Assembly: GCA_037200925.1 (NCBI GenBank)
Contig: JBBCGO010000001.1
Coordinates: 383,698 to 447,697, forward strand
Length of the DNA: 64,000 nt
Direction: 5' to 3'
Origin: Candidatus Doudnabacteria bacterium
Lineage (GTDB): Bacteria > Patescibacteriota > Doudnabacteria > UBA920 > O2-02-FULL-48-8
The notes under the pieces were generated by a model. The model was not told the DNA's origin, searched no databases, and saw only the letters and a program-made list of their open reading frames with translations. Position 1 is the stretch's first letter. Every line of letters starts with the position of its first letter. Positions 22,906 through 51,585 of the stretch are shown piece by piece. The translations under genes were made by a program, and so were the position numbers.

Positions 22906-24411
22906 TTACTTTCTGACGAAAACCAAAGCATTCGGAAGCAACCTGCCGGGTCCTGTCTTATAAACCCCATTATAGACCATGGCAGCAGATCCCCCGCCAT
23001 CAAGATTAAACGCATTATCAGCTCCAAGCGCCTGCATGATGTAGGCCAGGTCAAACACGGTTGCTGAGTGGGCTATTACCGCATATAGGGTCTGGCCAGT
23101 GAGGCCCAAACCTCCGCGGTCGCTTTTCACGGTGCGCTGCTTATCGTCAAGCGTGCTTTCTACGACCACGATCTGGCCATTCTGCACCAGCAGGGGTTCA
23201 TTGGAAATTCCGGCAGTGATGGGTAAATTTGCAGAGATGAGGTCTTTATATTGATTGAAAAAATGCGCTGTTCCTGAAGTATCAAAAGCCAAAAACGGCA
23301 TGTCTTCTTTAATATTATTATGGGCGTTGATCATCTTGTTCAGGCGGGAGTTATAAACTTTCCAGTAAAATGAATTGGTCTTGCCCGCGCATTCAGGATA
23401 ACTTGTCGGACAAAAATATGAACCATGGATGCCGGCAAATCCCTGGTTCTGATTGACAAAATCGATCAGGGATTTTACCTGGCAATTATTAAGGCAGTCA
23501 TTATCGTCAGCAGTATCAGTGACAACTTTGACCTGACTCGCATCAGCCGTCAGAATATCGACTGAGAAATTCCCGCGGCTCGTAGCCACGGTCTTTCTCT
23601 CATATGTAACCGCGGGTGCCGGCCCGCAGATAGTCCCGTTGTCGGCATAACCCAGAGTGGATGCCACCACTGCATTCTGCAAATTATATCCGAAATTGAT
23701 AAAACAAGCGGTGGAAGGAAAAGATCTTTTGCCCATGCCTTCGATGACCCAAATAACTCCCCCGTCATTGATCAAGGACCCGGAACGATAAGACAGCAAT
23801 GACCCGGCCGGTTTGGCCAGATCATTGGCATTGGCAGGCACGACCTCGGAAAAATTAAGCCCCCAGGAATTCAAAAGTGCAATTGAAGGAACACCTTGTC
23901 TCTGCGTGTCGGTCATGTACCAGACCGTGCCTGTGCCGTCAATCACGAACGAGCCGGAAAGGTGCGCTTCCGCTGCGGATGCGATGACCTGGCCCACGGG
24001 CAAGTTCAAAGTTCCGACTTTTGCCTGGCTGAATTTAAATCCCTGCCCCAGGAAAGCATCCTGCGAGACAAAGCCGTGCTTTGTGCCGCCCGAAACCTGG
24101 TAGCCCACACCCTGCTCCAGGAATAACCGCCCGTCGCCCCAGGCAATGACCGTGTGAGGCAAAGCCAGATCATCAGATGTCGCGGGCGCTGCCTGGGCAA
24201 AGCTGTACCGGTAAGAAAAATATTTTTCAGGGGTATCGAATCCCTCCAAAGCCTGCCCGTTATCGCTGATGCGGTAGATCGTGCCCTGAGAGATCACCAC
24301 GCTTCCGTGAGGATGCAGGAAGGTCGCCGCGCGGGCTGTGCGGACAAAAAACAGACAAATCAAAAGACTTCCGAAAAAAATTGAAGTCTTTAATAAATGT
24401 TCATTTTTCAT
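22906..24411 (-). CDS. Secreted phosphodiester glycosidase family protein (NAGPA-like C-terminal domain)
   Basis: Signal peptide MKNEHLLKTSIFFGSLLICLFFVRTARA. C-terminal ...AFNLDGGGSAAMVYNG... is typical of the phosphodiester glycosidase domain. I chose the start at the Met 90 nt inside the track ORF, to avoid overlapping the doxX gene. Confidence 0.6.
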   Translation of the reverse strand: MKNEHLLKTSIFFGSLLICLFFVRTARAATFLHPHGSVVISQGTIYRISDNGQALEGFDTPEKYFSYRYSFAQAAPATSDDLALPHTVIAWGDGRLFLEQGVGYQVSGGTKHGFVSQDAFLGQGFKFSQAKVGTLNLPVGQVIASAAEAHLSGSFVIDGTGTVWYMTDTQRQGVPSIALLNSWGLNFSEVVPANANDLAKPAGSLLSYRSGSLINDGGVIWVIEGMGKRSFPSTACFINFGYNLQNAVVASTLGYADNGTICGPAPAVTYERKTVATSRGNFSVDILTADASQVKVVTDTADDNDCLNNCQVKSLIDFVNQNQGFAGIHGSYFCPTSYPECAGKTNSFYWKVYNSRLNKMINAHNNIKEDMPFLAFDTSGTAHFFNQYKDLISANLPITAGISNEPLLVQNGQIVVVESTLDDKQRTVKSDRGGLGLTGQTLYAVIAHSATVFDLAYIMQALGADNAFNLDGGGSAAMVYNGVYKTGPGRLLPNALVFVRK

Positions 24412-38270: not shown

Positions 38271-39671
38271 TTAAACTTCAAAACTTTCCAGCAGCTTTGG
38301 AATGGTGATCTTGAAATCAGGATGACCTTGCTCCAGAATTTCTTTCAGCGCTTCGGCTTGCGGCAGTTCGGTGTGGACCAAAAATAAATTCTTCAGGCCC
38401 TGGATATTTTTTATATAATCTTTCAAAAAATCCTGATCCCCGTGCGCGCTGAATTCGTTCATGGTAATAACGCGAGCGCGAATATTTAAACTGGAACCCA
38501 AAATTTGTATGGGACTTTCACCGTGATGTATTTTCCGGCCAAGCGTGCCCTCGGCCTGATATCCTGTGATCAAGATCGTATTTTTCGGATCTTCAATATT
38601 GTTCTTCAAATGATGAAGGATGCGGCCGCCTTCCATCATTCCTGAAGAGGATATGATGATGAATGGCCCGGGTCTGGTATTCAAAGCCTTGGATTCTTCC
38701 ACCGTATGAATATACTGCAAATTTTTGAATGCCAGAGGCAGTTCATTTTTGCTGAAAAAATCCTGATCGGTCTCAGCGTCAAAATCTTCTTCGTGCTTGG
38801 CAAAAACTTCGCTGATGTTCAGCGCCAGCGGGCTGTCAACGAATATGGGAATGTCCTGGACGATCTTCCGGTCCGTCAGATCATGCAGAATATACACCAA
38901 TTCCTGCGTCCGGCCCAGAGCGAATGCCGGAATGATGATCTTGCCGCGGTTTTTGATGGCGAAATCTATGACTTCGCGCAGCTGGCCGGCAGCATCAGAC
39001 AAAGGTTTGTGTTTGGTCCCTCCGTAAGTTGCCTCGCTGATCAGAACATCGGAATTTTCCTGTACAGGCTCCGGGTCATGCAGGATCGGCGCTCCCGGCT
39101 GGCCTATATCACCGGTATAAGCCAAACCTCTGATAGTATCGTTCTCCTTGATCTCAAGATAAGTAATTGCGGATCCTAAAATATGGCCCGCGTCGTAAAA
39201 TTTAAACCGGATGCGGTCATTGATCTGGGTCCATTGCCCGGTTAAACGAAAATACGGGACGATCTCAAAATACTGGAAGATATTTTCAGCCTCTTCTTTC
39301 GTGTACATGACGCCGGGACTGGGAATTCCCGGGTGATTCTGAGCGTATTTGGAATCCATGGACTGGACCATGGCGCTGTCGATCAAAATAAATTTGGCGA
39401 TATCTGCCGTGGCACCGGTGCAATAAATTTTTCCTTTGAATCCGTTCTTTACTAGAATGGGCAGCATGCCGCAATGATCCGCATGAGCATGCGATAAAAT
39501 AACGCAGTCAATAGTCTTGGCATCAAAAGGCAAGGTCTGATGTTCCGGATCCCCGCCGGTGTGTTCGCCCTGCTGCAAACCGCAATCCAAAAGTATTCTG
39601 GATCCTTGCGTTTCGAGCAAATGTTTGGAACCGGTGACAGTTTGCGCCGCGCCGTAAAAAGTTATTTTCAT
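38271..39671 (-). CDS. MBL-fold beta-CASP family hydrolase (RNA-metabolising metallo-beta-lactamase)
   Basis: 466 aa. HAHADH motif (ILSHAHADHCG). beta-CASP insert and C-terminal RNA-specificity-type region. Confidence 0.8.
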   Translation of the reverse strand: MKITFYGAAQTVTGSKHLLETQGSRILLDCGLQQGEHTGGDPEHQTLPFDAKTIDCVILSHAHADHCGMLPILVKNGFKGKIYCTGATADIAKFILIDSAMVQSMDSKYAQNHPGIPSPGVMYTKEEAENIFQYFEIVPYFRLTGQWTQINDRIRFKFYDAGHILGSAITYLEIKENDTIRGLAYTGDIGQPGAPILHDPEPVQENSDVLISEATYGGTKHKPLSDAAGQLREVIDFAIKNRGKIIIPAFALGRTQELVYILHDLTDRKIVQDIPIFVDSPLALNISEVFAKHEEDFDAETDQDFFSKNELPLAFKNLQYIHTVEESKALNTRPGPFIIISSSGMMEGGRILHHLKNNIEDPKNTILITGYQAEGTLGRKIHHGESPIQILGSSLNIRARVITMNEFSAHGDQDFLKDYIKNIQGLKNLFLVHTELPQAEALKEILEQGHPDFKITIPKLLESFEV

Positions 39672-39674
39672 ATT

Positions 39675-42600
39675 TTACTCTTTAATGTCCCCTCCCGTAC
39701 TAGGAAAACTGGGTACTTGTCCAGAATTGTTCATTTGAACAATGGGTCCTTGGGGGAGCAGCAGATCCAGGCTGTTGGCAGGGAGCACGTCTTTGAATTG
39801 ATAGCCATAGGAGTAGAAGACTGCTTCAGACGGAAAACCATACCGAAGATCAGTGCCCAGAAGATATACGGTTCCCTGATTAAGAATCAAAGCTCCTACC
39901 GGGTGCCTGATGTTGGAAGAAAGGATGGATTCCCCTTCAGGAATAGCACTCGTGTCTGCTCGTATGACATTGGATAGTTTGTATCCTAGGGCTGTGAATA
40001 CGGCCATAGAGACAAAAGGACGTTTAAAGCCCTGGGACATGACATAGATCACCCCATGGTCCAGCAGAAGAGAGCCGTCTGATGTTAGGGTATTGGAAGC
40101 CTGCTGATTCGTACCTGGTGGTACATATGGGGCACAACAGGTTGGGCCTCCTCCGCCAGAAGGTGGAGGTGGAGGCGGAGGGGGCGGAGTTGAACCACCG
40201 AAATTCCAGTTGATATTGCCTCCCCCATCAATACAATTGGTACAGGTGACCACGGATGTAGCATGAGATGAGGATACGGAGAGATATGATAGAACACTTG
40301 AACCTTGGGAGTCTAGATTCCAGGCAGAGGAACCTGTGGTGAATTTCTGGATGCGGCCGTTGTTGGCATCTGCGACATAAATATTACCGGAGTGGTCCAT
40401 TGTAATACCTAGCGGAACAGCAAACTGGCCATCGCCCGAACCAGGTATCCCGCTCTGACATCCGGAGGTGCAAATTTGAAACGCATTTGTTGTTCCATCT
40501 TGAACACCCCAGCCGAATGTGAGGAGTAAATTACCCGAAGGGTCGAATTTCTCAATGCGGTTGTTTTGGATGTTGGCGACATAAATATTATTTGATGAGT
40601 CAATTGCAATACCTTGGGGATCGATAAACTGTCCATAGCCCCCACCTTCCGAACCAGCCTGGCATCCGGATGTGCAGATCTCAAACTGATCTGCTCCATC
40701 CTGCACTCCCCAGCCGATGGTATACTCAAAGACCGGCTCACCCGTGTTCAGAGAAAATTTCTGGATGCGGCTATTGTCAGAATCTGTGACATAGATATTA
40801 TTGAACGAGTCAATTGCAAGGAATGCTGGCTCATTGAACTGGCCGGCATCCGAACCTCGTATCCCACCCTGGCATCCGGAGGTGCAAATTTGAAACGCAT
40901 TTGTTGTTCCATCTTGAACACCCCAGCCGAAGGTGGAAAGAAAAGCACCGTCAGGGTCAAATTTCTGGATGCGGTTATTGCTAGCATCTACAACATAAAT
41001 GTTGCCCGAAGAGTCAAATACAATTCCTTGAGGATACTCAAATTGCCCATCGCCGGAACCTTCGGTTCCCCATTGAGTTACAAATCCTTCACCGGAATTG
41101 AATACCTCAATACGATGATTACTGCTATCCGTGACATAAATATTATTGGAAGAGTCAATTGCAATACCTCCGGGAACTAAGAATTGGCCGTCACCGCTGC
41201 CGCCAATCCCAGTTTGACAGCCCGATGTGCAGATCTCAAACTGATCTGCTCCAGTTTGTACTCCCCAGCCGAAGGTGGAAAGGAAATTGCCGGAAGGGTC
41301 AAATTTCTGGATGCGGCTATTTCCTTGATCCACGACATAAATATTACCTGAAGAGTCATTTGCAATGCCTATAGGATTATTTAATTCTCCTTCTGGGCTA
41401 CTATTGCCGAACTTTGAGAGAAAATTCTCTGAAGGATCAAATTTCTCGATACGTATGCCGCTGTCCGCAACATAAATATTGCCGGAAGCATCAACCGTAA
41501 CACCTACAGGTAAACTTGTCTGCCCCTCGCCCCCTGGCACATCTGGGTCATCGGCGGGTATCCCAGCCTGGCAGCCGGATGTGCAAATCTGAAATTCTTC
41601 TGTTCCGTCCAGCACTCCCCAGCCGAAAGTAGATTGAAAGGCGCCATTAGAACCAAATACCTGAATGCGACTATTGCCATAATCTGCAACATAAATATTA
41701 TCTGAGGAGTCGGTTGTAATACCGCCGGATGCATTGAATTGTCCGGCACCTGGGCCGGATATCCCGGCCTGACATCCTGACGTGCAGGTTTGGAATGCAT
41801 TTGCACCAGTCTGCACCCCCCAGCCAAAGGTAGATTGAAAGGCGCCCGAAGTATTAAATTTCTGGATACGGCTATTGTCGTTGTCTGCAACATAAATATT
41901 ATCTGAGGAGTCAATGGCTATATAATAAGGATGCTTTAATTGGCCATCGCCTGAGCCAAAACTTCCCCATGCGGAAATAAAGTGGCCGTCGGGACCAAAT
42001 TTCTGGATGCGATTATTGCCGGCATCAGAAATATAGACATTGCCTGAAGAATCGGCCGCAACACTAATACCGCCAGACCCGTCAAATTGGCCGGGACCGG
42101 AGCCTGCTATTCCGGCCTGACAGTTTGAATTACAGACTTGGAATGCAGGTGTTCCATCCAGCACCCCCCAACCAAAGGTTTTAATGAAAGTACCGGCGGA
42201 TGTGAATTCCTGGACGCGATTAGTATCTACTATGTAAATATTATTAGAGGAATCAACTATAATACCGCCGGGCGCATCGAATTGGCCGTCTCCCGTGCCG
42301 AAACTTCCCCATTTGATAATAAAATTGCCGGAAGGATCAAATTTCTGGATGCGGTTATTGTTAACATCTACGGCGTAAATATTTCCTGAGGAGTCATGCG
42401 CAATGCCTGTGATCTGGCTAAAATTTCCATCAACGGTATTGCTTCCTATACCAAACTTCGAAGCAAACACAGGCTGACCGGTGCCGGGTGCATGGTTCAA
42501 AGTCAGTAATCCCGTAGAAACACCAGTCAGAGTAAGTGTGCCTGTGACAGTTGTAGTATTAGCAGGGTCAAAGGATAAGGTGTCTGCAATGGTTGTGATC

Positions 42601-45600
42601 TTGGTTAAGTTATAGAAAGTATTGGAACCAAGTATGGTTTGGTTGGTTCCTGTGAGGATAACTGTGGAGGTATCGGCATGCAATTCGCCGTTATTGGTAA
42701 GGTTCCCTGAGATATTGAATGTGTTTGTACCCAGATGTAAGGCGCCCCCATCTGAGATGGTGATATCATCGATGGATTGATCATTGGTTAATGTAACTTC
42801 ATTATTTATCGTGGCGGAATCCAGATAAGTTGGATAATCAATACCCGCGATCCCGGGAGAAGTATTGCCCCAGGTAGCCCCATCATTCCAATTGCCGTCT
42901 TGTACAGAAGTAAAAGAAGAAGGAACCAATACGGTTACAAAGTTCCAGTTGATGTTCCCTCCTTCATCAGTACAATTGGTACAAGTGACGGCAGATGCCG
43001 AGTGAGATGAAGATACGGAAAGATATGATAGTGCGCTGGATCCTGAAGAGTTTAGATTCCAGGTATCGGCAGAGGTGGTGAATTTTTGGGTGTAAACATA
43101 AATATTATTTAATGGGTCAACCGCTATGATCCCAGGTTCTGAGAACTGGCCATCACCCGCGAAACCATTTATTCCACCCTGACATCCGGAGAAACAAGTC
43201 TCAAAATGATTTGCTCCATCCAGCACGCCCCAGCCGAATGTGAGAAGGAAATGGCCTGCTGGGTCAAGTTTCTGGATACGGCTGCTTTGACTGTCGCTGA
43301 CATAAAGGTTGCCCGATGAGTCGATGGCAATACCTTGAGGACCATTAAGCTCACCATCACCCATACCGGCTATTCCAGCCTGGCAATTGGATGTACAAGA
43401 CTCCCACATATTTGCGCCAGTTTGTACTCCCCAGCCGAAAGTGGAGAGAAACGTGCCCGAGGAATCAAATTTCTGGATGCGATTATTGAAATTATCCGGG
43501 ACATAAACATTATTAGAAGAATCAACCGCTACACTGTTAAGCCCGCTAAACTCACTTTCGCTTGTGCCGGGACTTCCCCATTTGGTAACGAAGTTGCCGG
43601 AAGGGCCGAATTTCTCGATGCGGGTATTCCCGTTATCTGCAACATAAAGATTGCCGAATGAGTCGAAGACCATAGCCTGAGAATTATTAAATTGGCCATC
43701 GCCTGAACCAACTATTCCACCCTGGCATCCGGAGGTACAGATCTCAAATTGATTTGCTCCATCCTGCACTCCCCAGCCGAAAGTGGAAAGGAAATGACCT
43801 CCCGAGTCAAATTTTTCAATACGGCTGTTTAGATTTCCGGCATCACTAACGTATATGTTACCCAGGGTGTCGGTTGTAATACCCTGAGGAAGATTGAATT
43901 GCCCGTCACCCGAACCTGCTAAGCCAACCTGACATCCGGAGGTACAGATCTCAAATTGATTTGCTCCATCCTGCACTCCCCAGCCAAAGGTAAAGAGGAA
44001 ATGGCCTGACGGATCAAATTTCTGGATGCGGTCACTGAAACTGTCTGCAACATAAAAATTTCCTGAAGCGTCGGCTCTTATGCCTCCGGCTTGATTTATT
44101 ACGCCTTCCGCTTGGTTATCGCCGAATATTGAGAGGAAATTACCCGAAGGATCAAATATCTTGACTCTGTAATTGTTCGAGTCCGTGACGTAAACTTTGC
44201 CGGAAGAGTCGGTTGAAATACCTGCGGGGGAAAAAACAAAAAAACTGTCACCGGAGGGAGGACTTTCCCACTCGGTGAAAAAACTGCCGTCAGAGTGAAA
44301 TTTCTCTATGCGGGCATTATTACCGGCCCAATCAGCAACATAAATATCGCCCGCTTGATCAACTGTAATAACCTGGGGATTAGAAAACTGGTCCAGACCA
44401 TCTCCTGTAATTCCAGCCAGGCAAGGCGTTGTTAAGTTTGTACAGATCTCAAAATGATTTGCTCCATCCTGTACTCCCCATCCGAAGGTGGACAGGAAAG
44501 TGCCGGCCGAATCAAATTTCTCAACTCGATAGTTGCCGTTATCGATTACGTAGAGATCATCTGATGAATCAATGGCGATGCCTAAGGGCTGATTAAACTC
44601 GCCATCGCCAGAGCCAATACTTCCCCACTGGGAAATGTAATTACCCGCAGAGTCAAATTTCTGGATACGATTATTGTTAGTATCTGTCACATAAAGAAAG
44701 TCGTCAGATGAGTCGATGGTAATGCCTGAAGGCTGATTAAACTCGCCATCGCCAGAGCCAATACTTCCCCACTGGGAAATGTAATTACCGGAAGAATCGA
44801 ATTTTTCGATACGATTATTGCCACTATCTACAACGTAGACATCAGAAGCGTCAGCAGTAGTTGTAATACCGGTAACACTATCAAACTGCCCATTGTCTGT
44901 GCCACCACCTCCCCATCTCGTAATGAAGTTGCCTGAGTGGTCAAGTTTCTGGATGTAATTATTGGAGTCATCCGCCACGTAGAAGTTACCCAAAGAATCG
45001 GTGGCAATGGCAGTCGGCGACTGAAAATTTCCACCAACCGAAAATGTATCAATCCCGATCCTGGAATCAAAAACAGGGCCATTGCTGGGTGAATGATTAA
45101 CAGTCAGCAGTCCCGTAGAAACTCCGGTAAGGGTCAGTGTGCCTGTGACGGTAGTAGTATTAGCCGGATCAAAGGAAAGAGTGTCTGCAACAGTTGTGAT
45201 TTTGGTTAAGTTATAAAAGTTATTATTTCCCAGTATTGTCTGGTTGCTGCCTGTAAGGATAACATGGGAAGTGCCGGCATTCAGGGTGCCGTTATTAGTA
45301 AAGTTCCCGGAGACAGAGAAAACGCGTGTTCCCAGATCTAAAGTGCCGCCATCTGAGATAGTGATATCGTGGACGGATCGGTCTTGTGTTAGTGTTACGT
45401 TGTTTTCTATAGTCGCATCATCTGTCGGACCTGGAAAATCAACCCCAATGACTCCGGGAGAGGTATTGCCCCAGGTAGCTCCGTCATTCCAGTTCCCGTC
45501 CTGCGCGGAGGTGAAAGAGGAGGCAAAAGCTTTATGGGGAGCCAGAATAGCCAAAGCAAAAAAAACCGCCAGCAAAAAAGGCATTGCTGGAAAAAATTTC

Positions 45601-45626
45601 AATCGTGTTTTTGTTTCAGGCCCCAT
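39675..45626 (-). CDS. Giant secreted NHL-repeat (multi-beta-propeller) protein with poly-Pro hinge and conserved C-terminal domain
   Basis: 1983 aa. Signal peptide. More than 40 NHL-type blades (recurring ..YV.D..N.RIQKFD..G.F...FG..G...G.F..P.GIA.D..). Cys-containing TSGCQ insertions. PPPPPPPPPSGGGGPTCCAPY then an approximately 230-aa C-terminal domain. Confidence 0.85.
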   Translation of the reverse strand: MGPETKTRLKFFPAMPFLLAVFFALAILAPHKAFASSFTSAQDGNWNDGATWGNTSPGVIGVDFPGPTDDATIENNVTLTQDRSVHDITISDGGTLDLGTRVFSVSGNFTNNGTLNAGTSHVILTGSNQTILGNNNFYNLTKITTVADTLSFDPANTTTVTGTLTLTGVSTGLLTVNHSPSNGPVFDSRIGIDTFSVGGNFQSPTAIATDSLGNFYVADDSNNYIQKLDHSGNFITRWGGGGTDNGQFDSVTGITTTADASDVYVVDSGNNRIEKFDSSGNYISQWGSIGSGDGEFNQPSGITIDSSDDFLYVTDTNNNRIQKFDSAGNYISQWGSIGSGDGEFNQPLGIAIDSSDDLYVIDNGNYRVEKFDSAGTFLSTFGWGVQDGANHFEICTNLTTPCLAGITGDGLDQFSNPQVITVDQAGDIYVADWAGNNARIEKFHSDGSFFTEWESPPSGDSFFVFSPAGISTDSSGKVYVTDSNNYRVKIFDPSGNFLSIFGDNQAEGVINQAGGIRADASGNFYVADSFSDRIQKFDPSGHFLFTFGWGVQDGANQFEICTSGCQVGLAGSGDGQFNLPQGITTDTLGNIYVSDAGNLNSRIEKFDSGGHFLSTFGWGVQDGANQFEICTSGCQGGIVGSGDGQFNNSQAMVFDSFGNLYVADNGNTRIEKFGPSGNFVTKWGSPGTSESEFSGLNSVAVDSSNNVYVPDNFNNRIQKFDSSGTFLSTFGWGVQTGANMWESCTSNCQAGIAGMGDGELNGPQGIAIDSSGNLYVSDSQSSRIQKLDPAGHFLLTFGWGVLDGANHFETCFSGCQGGINGFAGDGQFSEPGIIAVDPLNNIYVYTQKFTTSADTWNLNSSGSSALSYLSVSSSHSASAVTCTNCTDEGGNINWNFVTVLVPSSFTSVQDGNWNDGATWGNTSPGIAGIDYPTYLDSATINNEVTLTNDQSIDDITISDGGALHLGTNTFNISGNLTNNGELHADTSTVILTGTNQTILGSNTFYNLTKITTIADTLSFDPANTTTVTGTLTLTGVSTGLLTLNHAPGTGQPVFASKFGIGSNTVDGNFSQITGIAHDSSGNIYAVDVNNNRIQKFDPSGNFIIKWGSFGTGDGQFDAPGGIIVDSSNNIYIVDTNRVQEFTSAGTFIKTFGWGVLDGTPAFQVCNSNCQAGIAGSGPGQFDGSGGISVAADSSGNVYISDAGNNRIQKFGPDGHFISAWGSFGSGDGQLKHPYYIAIDSSDNIYVADNDNSRIQKFNTSGAFQSTFGWGVQTGANAFQTCTSGCQAGISGPGAGQFNASGGITTDSSDNIYVADYGNSRIQVFGSNGAFQSTFGWGVLDGTEEFQICTSGCQAGIPADDPDVPGGEGQTSLPVGVTVDASGNIYVADSGIRIEKFDPSENFLSKFGNSSPEGELNNPIGIANDSSGNIYVVDQGNSRIQKFDPSGNFLSTFGWGVQTGADQFEICTSGCQTGIGGSGDGQFLVPGGIAIDSSNNIYVTDSSNHRIEVFNSGEGFVTQWGTEGSGDGQFEYPQGIVFDSSGNIYVVDASNNRIQKFDPDGAFLSTFGWGVQDGTTNAFQICTSGCQGGIRGSDAGQFNEPAFLAIDSFNNIYVTDSDNSRIQKFSLNTGEPVFEYTIGWGVQDGADQFEICTSGCQAGSEGGGYGQFIDPQGIAIDSSNNIYVANIQNNRIEKFDPSGNLLLTFGWGVQDGTTNAFQICTSGCQSGIPGSGDGQFAVPLGITMDHSGNIYVADANNGRIQKFTTGSSAWNLDSQGSSVLSYLSVSSSHATSVVTCTNCIDGGGNINWNFGGSTPPPPPPPPPSGGGGPTCCAPYVPPGTNQQASNTLTSDGSLLLDHGVIYVMSQGFKRPFVSMAVFTALGYKLSNVIRADTSAIPEGESILSSNIRHPVGALILNQGTVYLLGTDLRYGFPSEAVFYSYGYQFKDVLPANSLDLLLPQGPIVQMNNSGQVPSFPSTGGDIKE

Positions 45627-45663
45627 AATAATTTAAGATGTGATCTATTAAAACTTCTTTGTT

Positions 45664-48600
45664 TTAGTTAGCGGGTCCCCCTCCCGTACTAGGAAAACTG
45701 GGTACTTGTCCAGAATTGTTCATTTGAACAATGGGTCCTTGGGGGAGCAGCAGATCCAGGCTGTTGGCAGGGAGCACGTCTTTGAATTGATAGCCATAGG
45801 AGTAGAAGACTACTTCAGACGGAAAACCGTACCGAAGATCAGTGCCCAGAAGATATACGGTTCCCTGATTAAGAATCAAAGCTCCTACCGGGTGCCTGAT
45901 GTTGGAAGAAAGGATGGATTCCCCTTCAGGAATAGCACTCGTGTCTGCTCGTATGACATTGGATAGTTTGTATCCTAGGGCTGTGAATACGGCCATAGAG
46001 ACAAAAGGACGTTTAAAGCCCTGGGACATGACATAGATCACCCCATGGTCCAGCAGAAGAGAGCCGTCTGATGTTAGGGTATTGGAAGCCTGCTGATTCG
46101 TACCTGGTGGTACATATGGGGCACAACAGGTTGGGCCTCCTCCGCCAGAAGGTGGAGGTGGAGGCGGAGGGGGCGGAGTTGAACCACCGAAATTCCAGTT
46201 GATATTGCCTCCCCCATCAATACAATTGGTGCAGGTGACCACGGATGTAGCATGAGATGAGGATACGGAGAGATATGATAGTACGCTTGAACCTTGGGAG
46301 TCTAGGGTCCAGGCAGAGGAACCTGTGGTGAATTTCTGAATGCGGCCGTTCCGAGTATCTGCAACATAGATACTACCGGAAGAGTCTATAGCAATACCGG
46401 AAATAAAGCTAAACTCTACATCGCCAGGGCCCCCGCTTCCCCATTGGGTAATGAAATTGCCTGAAGGATCAAATTTCTGGACGCGATTATTGTCTGCATC
46501 CGTAACATAGATATTACCGGAAGAGTCTATTGCAATGCCTTGCGGATTAGCAAGTTGGCCGTCATCTGAACCATATATCCCGGCCTGACAAGGTGTCGTT
46601 AGTTCTGTGCAAATTTCAAATTGATTTGCTCCATCCTGCACTCCCCAGCCGAAAGTGGAGAGGAAATTGCCATCAGAATCGAATTTCTCGATGCGGTTAT
46701 TGTCTATATCTGTGACATAAATATTACCGGAAGAGTCTGTTGCAATGCCTTGAAATGACTCAGAAGGTATGCTAAATTGTCCTTCACCTGAGCCGGGACT
46801 TCCCCACTGGAGAAGCAAATTGCCGGAAGGATCAAATTTTTCGACGCGATTATTTAGGGAATCTGCAACATAGATATTATCAGAAGAGTCAATTGCGATT
46901 CCTTGAGGTGAGTTGAACTGCCCGTCTCCTGAGCCGGGACTTCCCCACGAGGTAATCGTGTAGGAATTGCCGTTCGGGTGAAATTTCTGGATGCGATTAT
47001 TGTCGGTTTCTACAACATAGAGATTGTTTGATGAATCAAAAGCAAGACCTGTTGGACCGCTAAATTCCCCGTTGCCGGAACCTGGAATCCCGACATGACA
47101 GTTTAGTGTACAAATTTGAAACATATTTGCTCCATCCTGCACTCCCCAGCCAAAAGTGAGAAGAAAATTGCCTCCCGAGTCAAATTTCTGGATGCGGTTA
47201 TTAAAACTATCAGTGATGTAGATGTTGCCCGAGGCATCGAATGCAACATCACTGGGATAACCCAATGCTTTCTCCGGCGCCTTATTTACAAATTTCGAAA
47301 TGAAATTACCCGAAAAATCAAATTTCTGGATACCATTCTTTCCGTCATCCGAGACGTAGACAAAAGATGAGTCAGATGAAATAGTTACAGGACCCTGAAA
47401 TGCGCCTTCCTCTCCCGAATCAAGTCCGGCCCGACAAGGTATTGTTAATTCTGTGCAAACTTCAAATTGATTTGCTCCATCCTGCACTCCCCAGCCGAAT
47501 GTGAGCAGAAAACCACCAGCAGGGTTGAATTTCTGAACGCGATCATTAAAATAATCTGTGACATAAATGTCATTTGAAGAATCGGCATTAATTCCAGTAG
47601 GTCCTCCAAACTCGCTATCACCTGAACCATTACTTCCCCACTTGCCAAGAAAATTGCCTGCGGAATCAAATTTCTGGATGCGGTGATTGAAGTAATCGGC
47701 GACATAAATATTATTTAAATGGTCAACCGCAATGCCTTGAGGAAAATTAAATTCGTTGTCGGCAGTACCAAAAGTACCCCACTCGCTTTGAAAATTACCA
47801 GATGAATCAAATTTCTGGATGCGATTATTGCCGGAATCGGCGACATAGACATTACCGGAAGAGTCGGTTGCAATGCCTTGATATGTCTGATCAGGCATTT
47901 CAAACTGTCCGGGGCCGGAACCCTCGCTTCCCCACTGGGTAATATAATTGCCTGCCGAGTCAAATTTCTGGATGCGATTATTGCCGGAGTCGGCGACATA
48001 AATATTATTTAAATAGTCAACGGCAATGCCTTGAGGAAAATTAAATTCGCCGTCGCCTGAACCAAGCAACCCGGCATAACAACCGGTTAAAGTAGTGCAT
48101 GTTTGCAATTCAGGCGTCGTCCCATCTTGCACTCCCCAGCCGAATGCAAACAGAAAATTGTGGTTCGGATCAAATTTTTCAATGCGGTTATTCCAGCGAT
48201 CTAAGACGTACATATTATCGGAAGAGTCATTCGCAATAATTACGGGTGAATTGAGATTTCCTCCAAGTGAGAATACGTCTCTCCCGATATTTGAATCAAA
48301 GACAGGTTGACCCGCGCCTGGCGAATTGTTCACAGTCAGCAGTCCCGTAGAAACACCGGTAAGAGTAAGTGTGCCTGTGAGAGTGGTCGTATTGGCCGGG
48401 TCAAAGGAGAGAGTATCTGCAGTATTTGTGATTTTGGTTAAGTTATGGAAAGTATTAGGTCCAAGTATGGTTTGATTTGTGCCGTTGAGAACAACGGTAG
48501 AAGTTTGGGCGTTTAAAATGCCGTTATTGTTAAAGTTCCCTGAAACGAAGAAGGTGTTTGCTCCCAGATCTAAAGTGCCGCTGCCGGATATAGTGATATC

Positions 48601-51459
48601 ATGGACGGATTGATCTTGGGTCTGTGCTACTTCGTTTTCAATCGTTGCATCATCAATTGAGTTCGGATAATCAACACCGGCAGCTCCTGGTGATAGAAAA
48701 CCCCAGGTCGCTCCGTCATTCCAGTTGCCGTCTTGTACTGAGGTAAAAGATGCAGAGACATTTGGAATGAAAGTTGAACATACTGTAGTGACACCCGTCA
48801 CAACACCATATCCGGGAAAATTACTTGCACCTGGTGCGAAACAGGCATTACCATTGACGGTGCCGTAGTTGATGCTTGTACCCTTAAAGCTGGCATTACC
48901 GACGACAGAAGGATCCATAGTATAAAAATTTCCACTTGCATCATTGAAGGTGGGATTGCCGGTAACACTGCCTAAATTTTCACTTAAACCATTGAAAACG
49001 GGGTTGCCGTTGATAAATCCGTCGTTAGTGCTTGAATCATTGAAAATGGTATCGCCATTGATGGTGCCAAGGCTGAAGGCTGAATCATTGAAAGTAACAT
49101 CACCGGTGATAGTGGTACTATCATTGCGGCTTGTATCATTGAAGATAAACTGAGTGATCAGATTACCGCTCACATCTTGGGCTCTGCCGTTGACTCTTCC
49201 CCAAGTTTGACTGCCCGAAAGAGTGATTGCCCCGCCTGAAGCAGAAGTGAAAGTGGCATCTCCGGATACTAAACTCGGATTGTAACTGGAATCATTGAAC
49301 ACGGCATTCCCCGTAACAGTGCCGCTGTTGGTGCTTGAACCATTGAAAATGGTGTCGCCGGTAACAGTGCCTTGATTGTAGCTTGAATCATAGAAAATAG
49401 GATTGTTGGAGATAGTCGCAAAGTTCGCACTTTGATCCCTGAAGATAAACTGAGTGATCAGATTACCGCTCACATCTAGAGCCCTGCCATTAACTATTCC
49501 CCAAACTTGTTGACCGGTGAGAGTAACCAGACCGCCTGAAGCATAGGTGAACGTAGCATCGCCGGTCACGGTGCCTGCATTAGAGCTTGTATCATTGAAA
49601 ATAGGATTGCCGATTATATCAGTGTTGTTGGCGCTTGTATCATTAAAAACAGGATTGCCGGTAATAGTGCCGCTGTTTTGGCTTGTATCATTAAAAACAG
49701 GATTGCCGGAGATATCGGCGGAGTTGACGCTCGTATCGTTGAAAGTGGCAACGCCGGTGACAGTGCCGTTGTTGGAGCTGTTGTTGTTGAAAGTGGCATC
49801 GCCGGTGACAGTGCCGTTGTTCGTAAAGTCCCCTGATGACGAAAGAGTGTGTGCTGCGAGATTTAAAGTGCTGCCGGCAGAGACAGTGATGTCTTGGATG
49901 GATTGGTCTTGTGTCAGCGTCACTGTGTTTTCGACGGTCGCATTATCTGTGGGACCTGGAAAATCAGCACCGGCAACTCCGGGAGAGGTATTGCCCCAGG
50001 TCGCTCCGTCATTCCAATTGCCGTCTTGCACGGAAGTAAAAGATGTGGCAACTGGACTTATGATTTTCTGAATTGCTGCAGCAACATAACCGGCTAAAAT
50101 TCCGTATCCGGCATCGGTTGGATGAATGCCATCGTGATAATACGTTGTATCTGAATCTTCCCCGGGCTGACCCATCACGCTGCTCGATGCAATATCTGAA
50201 AGGCCGTCTGCAAAGCTCGGCCAATTAGCCCGAAGCAAGCTGTTAACAGTTTGTCTGTCTGCTTCGAACGTAGGGAGCGTAGGTTCGGTCCTGGGGAGTA
50301 TTGTATTTACAATTACTTTAAAACCGACCGCTCTCCTGGCCTGCGCGTACGAAACAATACGATTGTACGTTGTGATTGCATCTGCTCCAAAATGCAAATC
50401 ATTAGTCCCGCCCATCAGAGTCACAATATTAGTTGTATCCGCACCCAGAAATTCAGGATCAATTTGAGCAGGCGCATCGTTGATCATATCAAGTAGCGTT
50501 CGCGAAGATCCGCCCATATTTTGATAAGTTGGCCCAGGACCAAGAATGGCTTGCACCTGACTTGGATAATCTTGTCCCGTACTTGCCAGGTAACCCTGAG
50601 TTATGGAATCGCCGTCGAAAATAAGAAGAGGATTTGAGGGTATTGAAGCTATTCCATATTTGGCCATCAGGTAAGATTCAATTTGTCCGATCTGTACCCT
50701 AGATAGCGCACTGTTGTAAATAATAATTTCAGCTATATCGCCATGTAAATTATAACCGCCGCCGGAAATGGAACCGATCGTTAAGGCACCGCTCAAGCCT
50801 AAATTACCTGATGCCACACCGGGTTTTTCAGAACCGTTAAAGCGCAGCCGGGCATGCGTGCCATCATACGAGAAAGTTTCAATTGTGGGATCCGATATCA
50901 GGGCAGATCCCGGTGATGGCATGGCGACTTGTGTACGCGGCGCTGTAAGATTACCCGTCTGTGCCAAAATGGCGTTAGCACTATTACTGATACCGCCGCT
51001 GAACCAGGCAGCTCCCTGATTACTTGTGGTAAGCTCTAAATCTTCATCTGTTTTGGTCTGTACGATAAAAAACGTAAAACTCGTATCGAATGAAGAATCA
51101 AGAAATGAAGACGTATCCATATTTTGCGCCCCATTGAATCTAAGAACCGGATGACTATTTATAATATTAGTTTTATACGTGGGTCTGCTGCCTGCCGTTA
51201 ACTGTGTTGCGTTGTTTGCTCCTAAAGAACGGTCATTCCATTGTTGGACAGTGTCCCCATCAATTGCAGGGGTCGTGCCGTCTTTGGTAACTCCATTGGA
51301 TGCATCCATCCAAAGTTTAAGCCCGGAGATCTGATCAGGGGTAACCGCAAGAGCTTTATGCGGAGCCAGAATGGCCAAAGCAAAGAAAACCGCCAGCAAA
51401 AAAGGCATTGCTGGAAGAAATTTCAATGCTATTGAAATTAACTTATTATTTCCGGTCAA
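45664..51459 (-). CDS. Giant secreted multidomain protein: LamG-like, SGNH/GDSL hydrolase, Asn-rich beta-helix-like repeats, NHL-repeat propellers, then the same poly-Pro and C-terminal domain
   Basis: 1931 aa. GDSITQG...GGTNDL...DGIHPT (SGNH blocks I/III/V). About 11-aa periodic GNPVFNDTS.N.GT.TG repeats. More than 30 NHL blades. The last roughly 215 aa are about 98% identical at the nucleotide level to 39675..40330. Confidence 0.85.
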   Translation of the reverse strand: MTGNNKLISIALKFLPAMPFLLAVFFALAILAPHKALAVTPDQISGLKLWMDASNGVTKDGTTPAIDGDTVQQWNDRSLGANNATQLTAGSRPTYKTNIINSHPVLRFNGAQNMDTSSFLDSSFDTSFTFFIVQTKTDEDLELTTSNQGAAWFSGGISNSANAILAQTGNLTAPRTQVAMPSPGSALISDPTIETFSYDGTHARLRFNGSEKPGVASGNLGLSGALTIGSISGGGYNLHGDIAEIIIYNSALSRVQIGQIESYLMAKYGIASIPSNPLLIFDGDSITQGYLASTGQDYPSQVQAILGPGPTYQNMGGSSRTLLDMINDAPAQIDPEFLGADTTNIVTLMGGTNDLHFGADAITTYNRIVSYAQARRAVGFKVIVNTILPRTEPTLPTFEADRQTVNSLLRANWPSFADGLSDIASSSVMGQPGEDSDTTYYHDGIHPTDAGYGILAGYVAAAIQKIISPVATSFTSVQDGNWNDGATWGNTSPGVAGADFPGPTDNATVENTVTLTQDQSIQDITVSAGSTLNLAAHTLSSSGDFTNNGTVTGDATFNNNSSNNGTVTGVATFNDTSVNSADISGNPVFNDTSQNSGTITGNPVFNDTSANNTDIIGNPIFNDTSSNAGTVTGDATFTYASGGLVTLTGQQVWGIVNGRALDVSGNLITQFIFRDQSANFATISNNPIFYDSSYNQGTVTGDTIFNGSSTNSGTVTGNAVFNDSSYNPSLVSGDATFTSASGGAITLSGSQTWGRVNGRAQDVSGNLITQFIFNDTSRNDSTTITGDVTFNDSAFSLGTINGDTIFNDSSTNDGFINGNPVFNGLSENLGSVTGNPTFNDASGNFYTMDPSVVGNASFKGTSINYGTVNGNACFAPGASNFPGYGVVTGVTTVCSTFIPNVSASFTSVQDGNWNDGATWGFLSPGAAGVDYPNSIDDATIENEVAQTQDQSVHDITISGSGTLDLGANTFFVSGNFNNNGILNAQTSTVVLNGTNQTILGPNTFHNLTKITNTADTLSFDPANTTTLTGTLTLTGVSTGLLTVNNSPGAGQPVFDSNIGRDVFSLGGNLNSPVIIANDSSDNMYVLDRWNNRIEKFDPNHNFLFAFGWGVQDGTTPELQTCTTLTGCYAGLLGSGDGEFNFPQGIAVDYLNNIYVADSGNNRIQKFDSAGNYITQWGSEGSGPGQFEMPDQTYQGIATDSSGNVYVADSGNNRIQKFDSSGNFQSEWGTFGTADNEFNFPQGIAVDHLNNIYVADYFNHRIQKFDSAGNFLGKWGSNGSGDSEFGGPTGINADSSNDIYVTDYFNDRVQKFNPAGGFLLTFGWGVQDGANQFEVCTELTIPCRAGLDSGEEGAFQGPVTISSDSSFVYVSDDGKNGIQKFDFSGNFISKFVNKAPEKALGYPSDVAFDASGNIYITDSFNNRIQKFDSGGNFLLTFGWGVQDGANMFQICTLNCHVGIPGSGNGEFSGPTGLAFDSSNNLYVVETDNNRIQKFHPNGNSYTITSWGSPGSGDGQFNSPQGIAIDSSDNIYVADSLNNRVEKFDPSGNLLLQWGSPGSGEGQFSIPSESFQGIATDSSGNIYVTDIDNNRIEKFDSDGNFLSTFGWGVQDGANQFEICTELTTPCQAGIYGSDDGQLANPQGIAIDSSGNIYVTDADNNRVQKFDPSGNFITQWGSGGPGDVEFSFISGIAIDSSGSIYVADTRNGRIQKFTTGSSAWTLDSQGSSVLSYLSVSSSHATSVVTCTNCIDGGGNINWNFGGSTPPPPPPPPPSGGGGPTCCAPYVPPGTNQQASNTLTSDGSLLLDHGVIYVMSQGFKRPFVSMAVFTALGYKLSNVIRADTSAIPEGESILSSNIRHPVGALILNQGTVYLLGTDLRYGFPSEVVFYSYGYQFKDVLPANSLDLLLPQGPIVQMNNSGQVPSFPSTGGGPAN

Positions 51460-51501
51460 TTGTGTTTTTGTTTCAAGCCCAACTAATCACTTATTAATAT
51501 A

Positions 51502-51530
51502 ATTATAGCACATGGAAGAAAAAAAAGCAA
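51502..51530 (-). promoter_or_regulatory. Promoter TTGCTT-17-TGCTATAAT (minus strand) upstream of the giant-gene pair
   Basis: Minus: tcttgcttttttttcttccatgtgctataattat. Paralogous to the element at 35904-35932. Only 37 bp separate the two giant genes, so they are probably co-transcribed from here. Confidence 0.5.
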
Positions 51531-51555: not shown

Positions 51556-51585
51556 CAAAAAAACCAGCATTGCTGGCGTTTTTTG
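51556..51585. terminator. Bidirectional hairpin terminator
   Basis: aaaaaaaccagcattgctggcgtttttt. Confidence 0.6.

Follow-up and report, generated by a model that had tools for sequence, protein, structure and literature searches.

What makes two neighbouring genes end in almost the same sequence when the rest of their length differs? This question is raised by two giant genes, here called A and B, in a 64,000-nt stretch of DNA (the window) from Candidatus Doudnabacteria bacterium (assembly GCA_037200925.1, contig JBBCGO010000001.1, positions 383,698 to 447,697). The open reading frame (ORF) list and its translations place them next to each other on the minus strand, 37 nt apart, at window positions 39675–51459. 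Both are built of Head modules, NHL repeats and Tail modules, and NCBI names both products '6-bladed beta-propeller [Candidatus Doudnabacteria bacterium]'. An initial annotation described about 650 bp of near-identical sequence at their 3' ends, followed by abrupt divergence, and attributed it to recent concerted evolution of the termini. The present analysis agrees on both counts and points with good confidence to recent gene conversion between old tandem paralogs, which was probably repeated.

Each copy of the 3' tract measures 661 nt. The two share the same codon phase, are offset by 5,989 nt and align without gaps, with seven substitutions between them (98.9% identity). In gene A these fall at 39823, 39840, 40242, 40293, 40296, 40317 and 40318, and the coding-strand mismatches read T/C, C/T, T/C, T/A, T/C and AT/CC. 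Four are synonymous, one results in A>V, and the adjacent pair results in N>T. In an ungapped scan at the 5,989-nt offset, nearly every 25-nt segment from 39700 to 40349 matches at all 25 positions, after which the count drops to 18, 19, 13 and 13 of 25. Weak identity continues past the tract to 40361, across a conserved NHL motif. At the other end, the tract stops 13 nt short of the stop codons. The tract had originally been placed at 39675–40330 and 45664–46320; the tract itself stands, but its limits shift by ~14–20 nt at each end, as the last four codons and the stop (39675–39688 vs. 45664–45677) are dissimilar, reading GDIKE-stop and GGPAN-stop. The 220 codons of the tract encode the end of the last NHL repeat, a ~50-amino-acid (aa) Tail with a CxxC motif, a PPPPPPPPP-SGGGG linker, and a 156-aa C-terminal region with two repeats, the C-terminal domain (CTD).

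Outside the tract, the two genes are much less alike. When each 60-mer of gene A was compared with gene B, best matches of 56–60 of 60 positions occurred only in the tract; elsewhere they ranged from 28 to 55, save for 56 of 60 in the signal-peptide block, and the best-matching 60-mers jump among non-corresponding NHL repeats. No other long repeat of ≥95% identity is present in the 64-kb window. A protein-guided codon alignment shows that genes A and B are collinear from Head2 onward, ~2.3 kb before the tract, and the tract therefore lies inside pre-existing homology. Background identity across the aligned second halves is 64.4% over 2,289 nt, a rate at which a 661-nt segment would differ at no more than seven positions with a binomial probability of ~1e-112. 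In 40-codon windows before the tract, aa identity ranges from 0.37 to 0.82 and synonymous divergence (dS) from 0.4 to saturated. The NHL arrays just before the tract have dS values from 0.64 to saturation, the window straddling the boundary has 0.42, and the last five windows (~220 codons) have 0.00–0.03. As synonymous sites are identical too, protein-level selection is ruled out as the cause. A maximum chi-square scan found one sharp breakpoint at 40361, with a chi-square of 284 compared with a maximum of 16.6 in 300 permutations. Divergence along the pair is non-uniform in the best-match, codon-alignment and breakpoint analyses, which were used instead of a dot plot. As in a conversion tract, the shared segment is far less diverged than its flanking homology and its synonymous sites are homogenised as well.

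The bodies of the genes show no comparable levelling. Head modules are 70–79% identical between the genes, while NHL repeat units have a mean identity of 56–64%, with one pair at 86%, and lack positional correspondence, in keeping with the earlier observation that the interior repeats differ. Homogenisation inside the NHL arrays was considered and rejected, as the average of 56–64% holds for units of one gene and for units of different genes alike. Only the gene ends are homogenised.

The distribution of the seven differences carries further information. Perfect runs along the tract measure 134, 16, 401, 50, 2, 20, 0 and 31 nt, and the probability that seven randomly placed differences in 661 nt leave a run of at least 401 nt is 0.011, in a test that was picked after the data had been seen. 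As the residual differences cluster at the edges around the 401-nt perfect core, they suggest that a short, more recent conversion took place inside an earlier, longer one, which would imply at least two events and ongoing concerted evolution. An older internal Tail copy in the middle of gene A, Tail1, can serve as an outgroup for the start of the tract. Of the five variable Tail sites, two carry the derived state in gene A and three in gene B, hence both copies have changed since they were last homogenised.

The 5' ends are also alike, if less so. Gapped local alignment of the leader and signal-peptide blocks matches 103 of 113 aligned nt (91%), with a 33-nt insertion in gene B and a 1-nt indel, which supports the reported similarity of the signal-peptide-encoding ends and their upstream leaders. 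Without gaps, the comparison covers 81 nt at 94%, and the longest perfect run is 31 nt. A reading of the leaders as unrelated, obtained from ungapped and MAFFT alignments, was overturned by the gapped local alignment. The block starts at about the predicted transcription start of gene B and ends exactly at the AxA signal-peptidase motif, beyond which the mature proteins A and B begin with unrelated domains. Within its 27 signal-peptide codons, the proportion of synonymous differences (pS) is 0.20 (four differences at ~20 synonymous sites), compared with 0.43–0.88 in the NHL arrays; the tail probability of this value hinges on the assumed background and runs from 0.02 down to 6e-6. Judged by these values, the 5' block is younger than the gene bodies and older than the 3' tract. 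Together with the drop in dS and the breakpoint at 40361, the low 5' pS supports recent concerted evolution of both termini.

Transcription and start sites can be read from the same region. An extended -10-like element, TGcTATAAT, lies at 51510–51502, just upstream of the 5' block of gene B. Gene A has no equivalent promoter-like site and is probably co-transcribed with gene B. The longest-ORF starts, ATG 45626 and TTG 51459, are not shared by the copies, one arising from the 1-nt indel and the other lying within the 33-nt insertion. Conserved start candidates are TTG 45602/51426 (MKF[F/L]PAMPFLL...) and ATG 45584/51408, the latter being the choice of NCBI. A hairpin, CCAGCAA-N8-TTGCTGG, followed by a U-run overlies the conserved ATG of both genes (45569–45590 and 51393–51414, minus strand), where the block is perfectly conserved. 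Folding is weak, with 56-nt regions giving -12.2 and -18.9 kcal/mol (z -1.4 and -3.5, respectively). This hairpin could be an attenuator, a start-codon-masking element, or a by-product of the PAMPFLLAVFF codons.

A history can be proposed that accommodates these patterns. Genes B and A would stem from one gene for a giant secreted NHL-repeat protein that was duplicated in tandem long ago, with a duplicated unit that begins at approximately the transcription start and stops 13 nt short of the stop codon. Since then, the bodies have diverged to ~64% nt identity and saturated synonymous sites; their NHL repeats have been reshuffled and their N-terminal modules differ. In contrast, the final 661 nt, encoding the Tail, the poly-proline linker and the two-repeat CTD, would have been homogenised recently by non-reciprocal homologous recombination, and the 5' leader and signal-peptide block at an earlier time. 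The upstream edge of the tract falls in the last NHL repeat, at its NGRIQKF motif, where the nucleotide sequence of the NHL repeats is best conserved, and the downstream edge would correspond to the end of homology between the duplicated units. We infer that the constant ends tolerate homogenisation while the exposed propeller arrays stay different.

Several points weigh against this reading. No orthologous locus was found in genome and metagenome contig collections, where the best CTD relatives share 34–53% aa identity, and a test of whether the paralogs cluster by genome in the tract and by ortholog in the body needs such loci. The window covers 64 kb of a 964-kb genome, so that the evidence against a third near-identical copy elsewhere is indirect. 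The two-copy structure is read from the assembled contig and not from raw reads. In addition, the case for more than one event is the post-hoc spacing test, with P ~0.01. Among six longer loci of distant CTD relatives, none contains long near-identical repeats.

Another history would be a one-off transfer of the Tail-linker-CTD cassette onto a gene with a different former end, joined at the conserved NHL motif. The upstream boundary lies exactly at the most conserved NHL nucleotide motif, NHL units lack positional orthology between the genes, and the CTD is a mobile module that is fused to many passenger domains elsewhere, all of which fit such a transfer. So does the 42-nt junction behind the gene B tract, which has no recognisable origin. 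A simple tandem-duplication junction was rejected for this spacer, which is not homologous to the sequence downstream of gene A or upstream of gene B and scores below shuffled controls. However, genes A and B run collinearly through their second halves, from Head2 on, Tail modules are old in the family (Tail1 is 77–78% identical), and the uneven spacing of the differences suits repeated events better than a single one. A one-off transfer is thus unlikely, and it would still be non-reciprocal recombination, differing from conversion in history rather than in kind. It is quite unlikely, too, that the locus is a surface-variation system in use, in which the constant leader and signal peptide and the anchor act as homology arms while the exposed NHL bodies are deleted, duplicated or swapped. 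Both gene ends are conserved and the exposed middle has diverged, as such a system would require, and babA/babB chimeras provide an analogy (PMC3960876). The two copies of the 401-nt perfect core have the same orientation and codon phase and are well suited to homologous recombination. If the tracts recombined, 5,989 bp would be lost and an intact gene would remain, consisting of the gene B body and the last four codons of gene A. Ongoing deletion or shuffling at the locus is plausible. If such a system were in use, ~5-kb bodies would be switched, the homogenised ends would be kept because they allow switching, and the population of this Patescibacterium, which has a reduced genome and is probably host-attached, would be a mixture of B-only, A-only, B+A and chimeric surfaces. 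Yet the window holds only two full-length copies, each with a signal peptide, and neither silent or donor cassettes nor partial copies of the tract, which sets the locus apart from antigenic or phase-variation cassette systems of the pilE/pilS, vls or bab type. The 5' block, with its longest perfect run of 31 nt, is a poor substrate, and concerted evolution alone explains the pattern.

The remaining explanations are far less probable than either of these. An artefact, in which assembly or co-assembly pasted one C-terminal region onto the adjacent gene, is very improbable. The source metagenome-assembled genome (MAG; p__Patescibacteria; c__Doudnabacteria; o__UBA920, 47.3% GC) was assembled with hifiasm-meta from PacBio HiFi reads in a co-assembly of four deadwood samples (PMC11613949), and the region is highly repetitive, both of which could favour such an error. 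On the other hand, the genome is a single 964,444-bp contig described as 'nearly finished', and the reads average 18,340 bp (PMC11613949), so that single reads should span both copies, which lie 6 kb apart. The copies also differ by seven substitutions instead of the homopolymer indels typical of HiFi errors, and both are in frame with clean junctions. Least credible of all is constraint at the nucleotide level, by an embedded RNA, an antisense gene or a promoter of the downstream gene, or a template/variable repeat pair of a diversity-generating retroelement. Each tract does lie directly upstream of the next gene start, and promoter- and terminator-like consensus matches occur in both copies, as expected of identical sequence, but the number of promoter-like matches is not above that in shuffled controls. 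Template/variable repeat pairs are several times shorter than the 661-nt tract, and the tract mismatches are not adenine-specific. With no reverse transcriptase or transposase among the annotated neighbours scanned, and no Rfam or tRNA match in the window, a diversity-generating retroelement, a mobile element and a structured RNA were each rejected.

Gene conversion between duplicated bacterial genes is a well-known mechanism, of which this locus is a further example that is unsurprising to specialists. In tufA/tufB of Salmonella and in rRNA operons, conversion likewise leaves a mosaic of near-identity in older divergence with synonymous sites homogenised; however, the whole gene is kept identical there, compared with the terminal 11% of each gene here. 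The closest analogue is found in the babA/babB and homA/homB genes of Helicobacter pylori, where 3' similarity within strains is attributed to concerted evolution and gene conversion makes chimeras (PMC3960876). Concerted evolution of the 3' ends of paralogous H. pylori adhesin genes by RecA-dependent gene conversion, including sabA/sabB, is ascribed in that review to Pride & Blaser 2002 (PMC3960876). In both cases the paralogs encode surface proteins whose gene ends are more alike than the middle, and the 3' envelope-embedded or anchoring part is homogenised within the genome while the exposed (in H. pylori, ligand-binding) middle stays different. The H. pylori loci are dispersed, whereas genes A and B are adjacent and in tandem, and the homogenised part is an outer-membrane beta-barrel there but a soluble two-repeat domain here. 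Moreover, the proteins here are ~2,000-aa NHL propellers of a Patescibacterium, and the chimeras and switching observed in H. pylori were not seen at this locus. The locus would provide a clean, long-read case of partial gene conversion from the Candidate Phyla Radiation, a group in which recombination biology is almost entirely inferred. It would show homologous recombination acting on giant surface-protein genes of these bacteria and identify the constant modules of such proteins, namely the signal peptide and the C-terminal Tail-linker-domain.

The homogenised CTD spans 39678–40145 in gene A and 45667–46134 in gene B and consists of two ~55-aa repeats, with members of the wider family having two or three. 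It has no Pfam or NCBIfam match at E ≤ 5 and no PDB sequence match. A word-indexed protein search with the 225-aa tract product gave nothing, as the poly-proline run dominated the words, and without the linker it returned two short fragments. An exhaustive search of 1.84 billion representative proteins placed the domain in at least 1,648 protein clusters (E ≤ 1e-3). Of the 150 best-scoring relatives, only A and B themselves exceed 60% identity, which speaks against a donor other than these two copies. The CTD lies within 60 aa of the C-terminus in 119 of 152 proteins (the 150 best representatives and two other matches). Passenger domains in a sample of 50 include Big_7, fn3, cohesin, FG-GAP, PA14, polysaccharide deacetylase and CAP, among many extracellular domains. 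Within the window, CTDs outside genes A and B share 28–41% aa identity, which represents the background divergence of the domain in this genome.

An AlphaFold model built with 34 family members has a mean pLDDT of 90, and each repeat is predicted to form three strands, a helix and a further short strand. The best PDB matches of the model in Foldseek are periplasmic repeats of EccB (7nps, 3x3n, 5cyu and 4kk7), with E-values of 7.6e-5 to 5e-4 and probabilities of 0.98–1.0, but TM-scores are low (0.28) and superposition is limited to the repeat units. EccB belongs to mycobacterial ESX/type VII secretion systems, is built of an N-terminal transmembrane helix, a central domain and four repeats, and shares with the CTD tandem ~50-aa units of three strands and a helix located outside the membrane. 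The CTD differs in having no sequence-level relation to EccB and in being a C-terminal appendage of secreted proteins and not part of the secretion machinery. Membership of the EccB family was therefore rejected, given that no Pfam, NCBIfam or PDB sequence match exists and the fold of the repeat unit alone is shared. In the EccB1 structure paper, repeat R1 was likened to the cell-wall-binding PlyCB (PMC4769845), although peptidoglycan binding is unproven even for EccB. From its position, partners and predicted fold, we infer that the CTD is a cell-envelope anchor. It is widespread, has a model in neither Pfam nor NCBIfam, and is a candidate for the module by which Patescibacteria in general anchor proteins at their surface.

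Table 1. Features of the gene A/B locus and related elements, in window coordinates
Feature	Position	Strand	Details
Gene A	39675..45626	-	1,983 aa from ATG 45626; giant NHL-repeat secreted protein (ORF list, translation, Pfam)
Gene A, NCBI record			MEJ0021441.1; start ATG 45584, 1,969 aa
Gene A, module order			Signal peptide, Head1, NHL array, Tail1, Head2, NHL array, Tail2, poly-Pro linker, CTD
Gene B	45664..51459	-	1,931 aa from TTG 51459; giant secreted protein (ORF list, translation, Pfam)
Gene B, NCBI record			MEJ0021442.1; start ATG 51408, 1,914 aa
Gene B, module order			Signal peptide, unassigned N-terminal region, GDSL/SGNH hydrolase domain, Head1, short Asn/Thr-rich repeats, Head2, NHL array, Tail, poly-Pro linker, CTD
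3' tract, gene A copy	39689..40349	-	661 nt; dS 0.00–0.03
3' tract, gene B copy	45678..46338	-	blastn 98.9% over 661 nt
401-nt perfect core	39841..40241 (gene A copy), 45830-46230 (gene B copy)	-	Perfect-run analysis
Divergent tip of gene A	39675..39688	-	Last 4 codons and stop; directly upstream of beta-CASP gene
42-nt junction between homologous units	45636..45677	-	Last 4 codons and stop of gene B, plus spacer before gene A leader
5' block, gene A copy	45523..45635	-	Leader and signal-peptide coding; ends at AxA cleavage site
5' block, gene B copy	51347..51493	-	Contains 33-nt insertion 51429-51461 flanked by ATTGA repeats
Promoter-like site, gene B	51502..51530	-	TTGCTT, 17 nt, TGcTATAAT; putative, read by eye
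Terminator-like hairpin	51563-51577		Precedes promoter-like site; -13.9 kcal/mol, z -3.6 (terminator scan, fold)
Tail1, older internal Tail copy mid-gene A	42939..43088	-	77–78% identical to tract start; blastn 77.9% over 149 nt
CTD paralog	56145..56495	-	C-terminus of unrelated 878-aa secreted protein; 39% aa identity, tblastn E 6e-16
CTD-type repeats	23629..24330	-	Within 531-aa protein with NAGPA domain (Pfam); 28–41% aa identity, tblastn
Beta-CASP/metallo-beta-lactamase protein gene	38271-39671		Start at 39671, next to gene A tip

Both products score above the Pfam gathering cut-off of 20 for the NHL repeat beta-propeller family (PF01436) with multiple repeats, gene A with 17 stretches (E 9e-144, 461 bits) and gene B with 10 (E 3.6e-85, 276 bits). 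Gene B also matches Lipase_GDSL_2 (E 6.8e-17). The arrays are far longer than the one propeller of NHL six-bladed proteins, and some blades carry Cys-containing inserts (FGWGVQDG...C...C). ScyF is the best-scoring NCBIfam model for the NHL arrays, a match that reflects the repeats only and not orthology. Some NHL units within a gene are 84–87% identical, compared with ~60% generally (47621–47771/47915–48065, 44557–44685/44701–44829 and 40423–40565/40837–40979). Such pairs suggest that units inside the arrays have, from time to time, been duplicated recently or converted over short stretches.

Gene A can be read as two complete Head-NHL-Tail units (42939–45536 and 39689–42925), with the second Head directly after Tail1, and looks like a fusion or internal duplication of two such units. 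Head1 of gene A is closest to Head1 of gene B (79%), and its Head2 to Head2 of gene B (77%). This pairing across the genes indicates that the two-Head layout is older than the A/B duplication. Between Head1 and Head2, gene B encodes a run of short Asn/Thr/Ser-rich repeats of ~14–15 aa (48800–49900, aa ~520–890) of the type NDTS.N.G.I.G, which may form a beta-helix stalk. A 300-nt tandem duplication of 70% identity lies at 49130–49729, and the repeat run has a faint Pfam match to Bflower_2.

In exact-protein look-ups, the gene A product is recorded on one contig per gene call and the 1,914-aa gene B product on two, all of them 964,444 bp long and JBBCBH010000057.1 among them; these probably represent one sequence that was deposited with both the co-assembly and the MAG. 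These look-ups found no clearly independent assembly with either product, and no exact record of the adjacent beta-CASP protein. The neighbouring genes are ordinary or housekeeping, and encode an MFS transporter, MarR, the beta-CASP nuclease, a DsbD-like protein, VanY, YkuD, a P-type ATPase, PNPase and purine-synthesis enzymes. A third secreted repeat protein of 878 aa, with weak Pfam matches to T2SS-T3SS_pil_N, is encoded at 56103–58739 on the minus strand. Its gene contains five internal repeats of ~270 nt with 68–79% identity, and the protein ends in a CTD-type domain.

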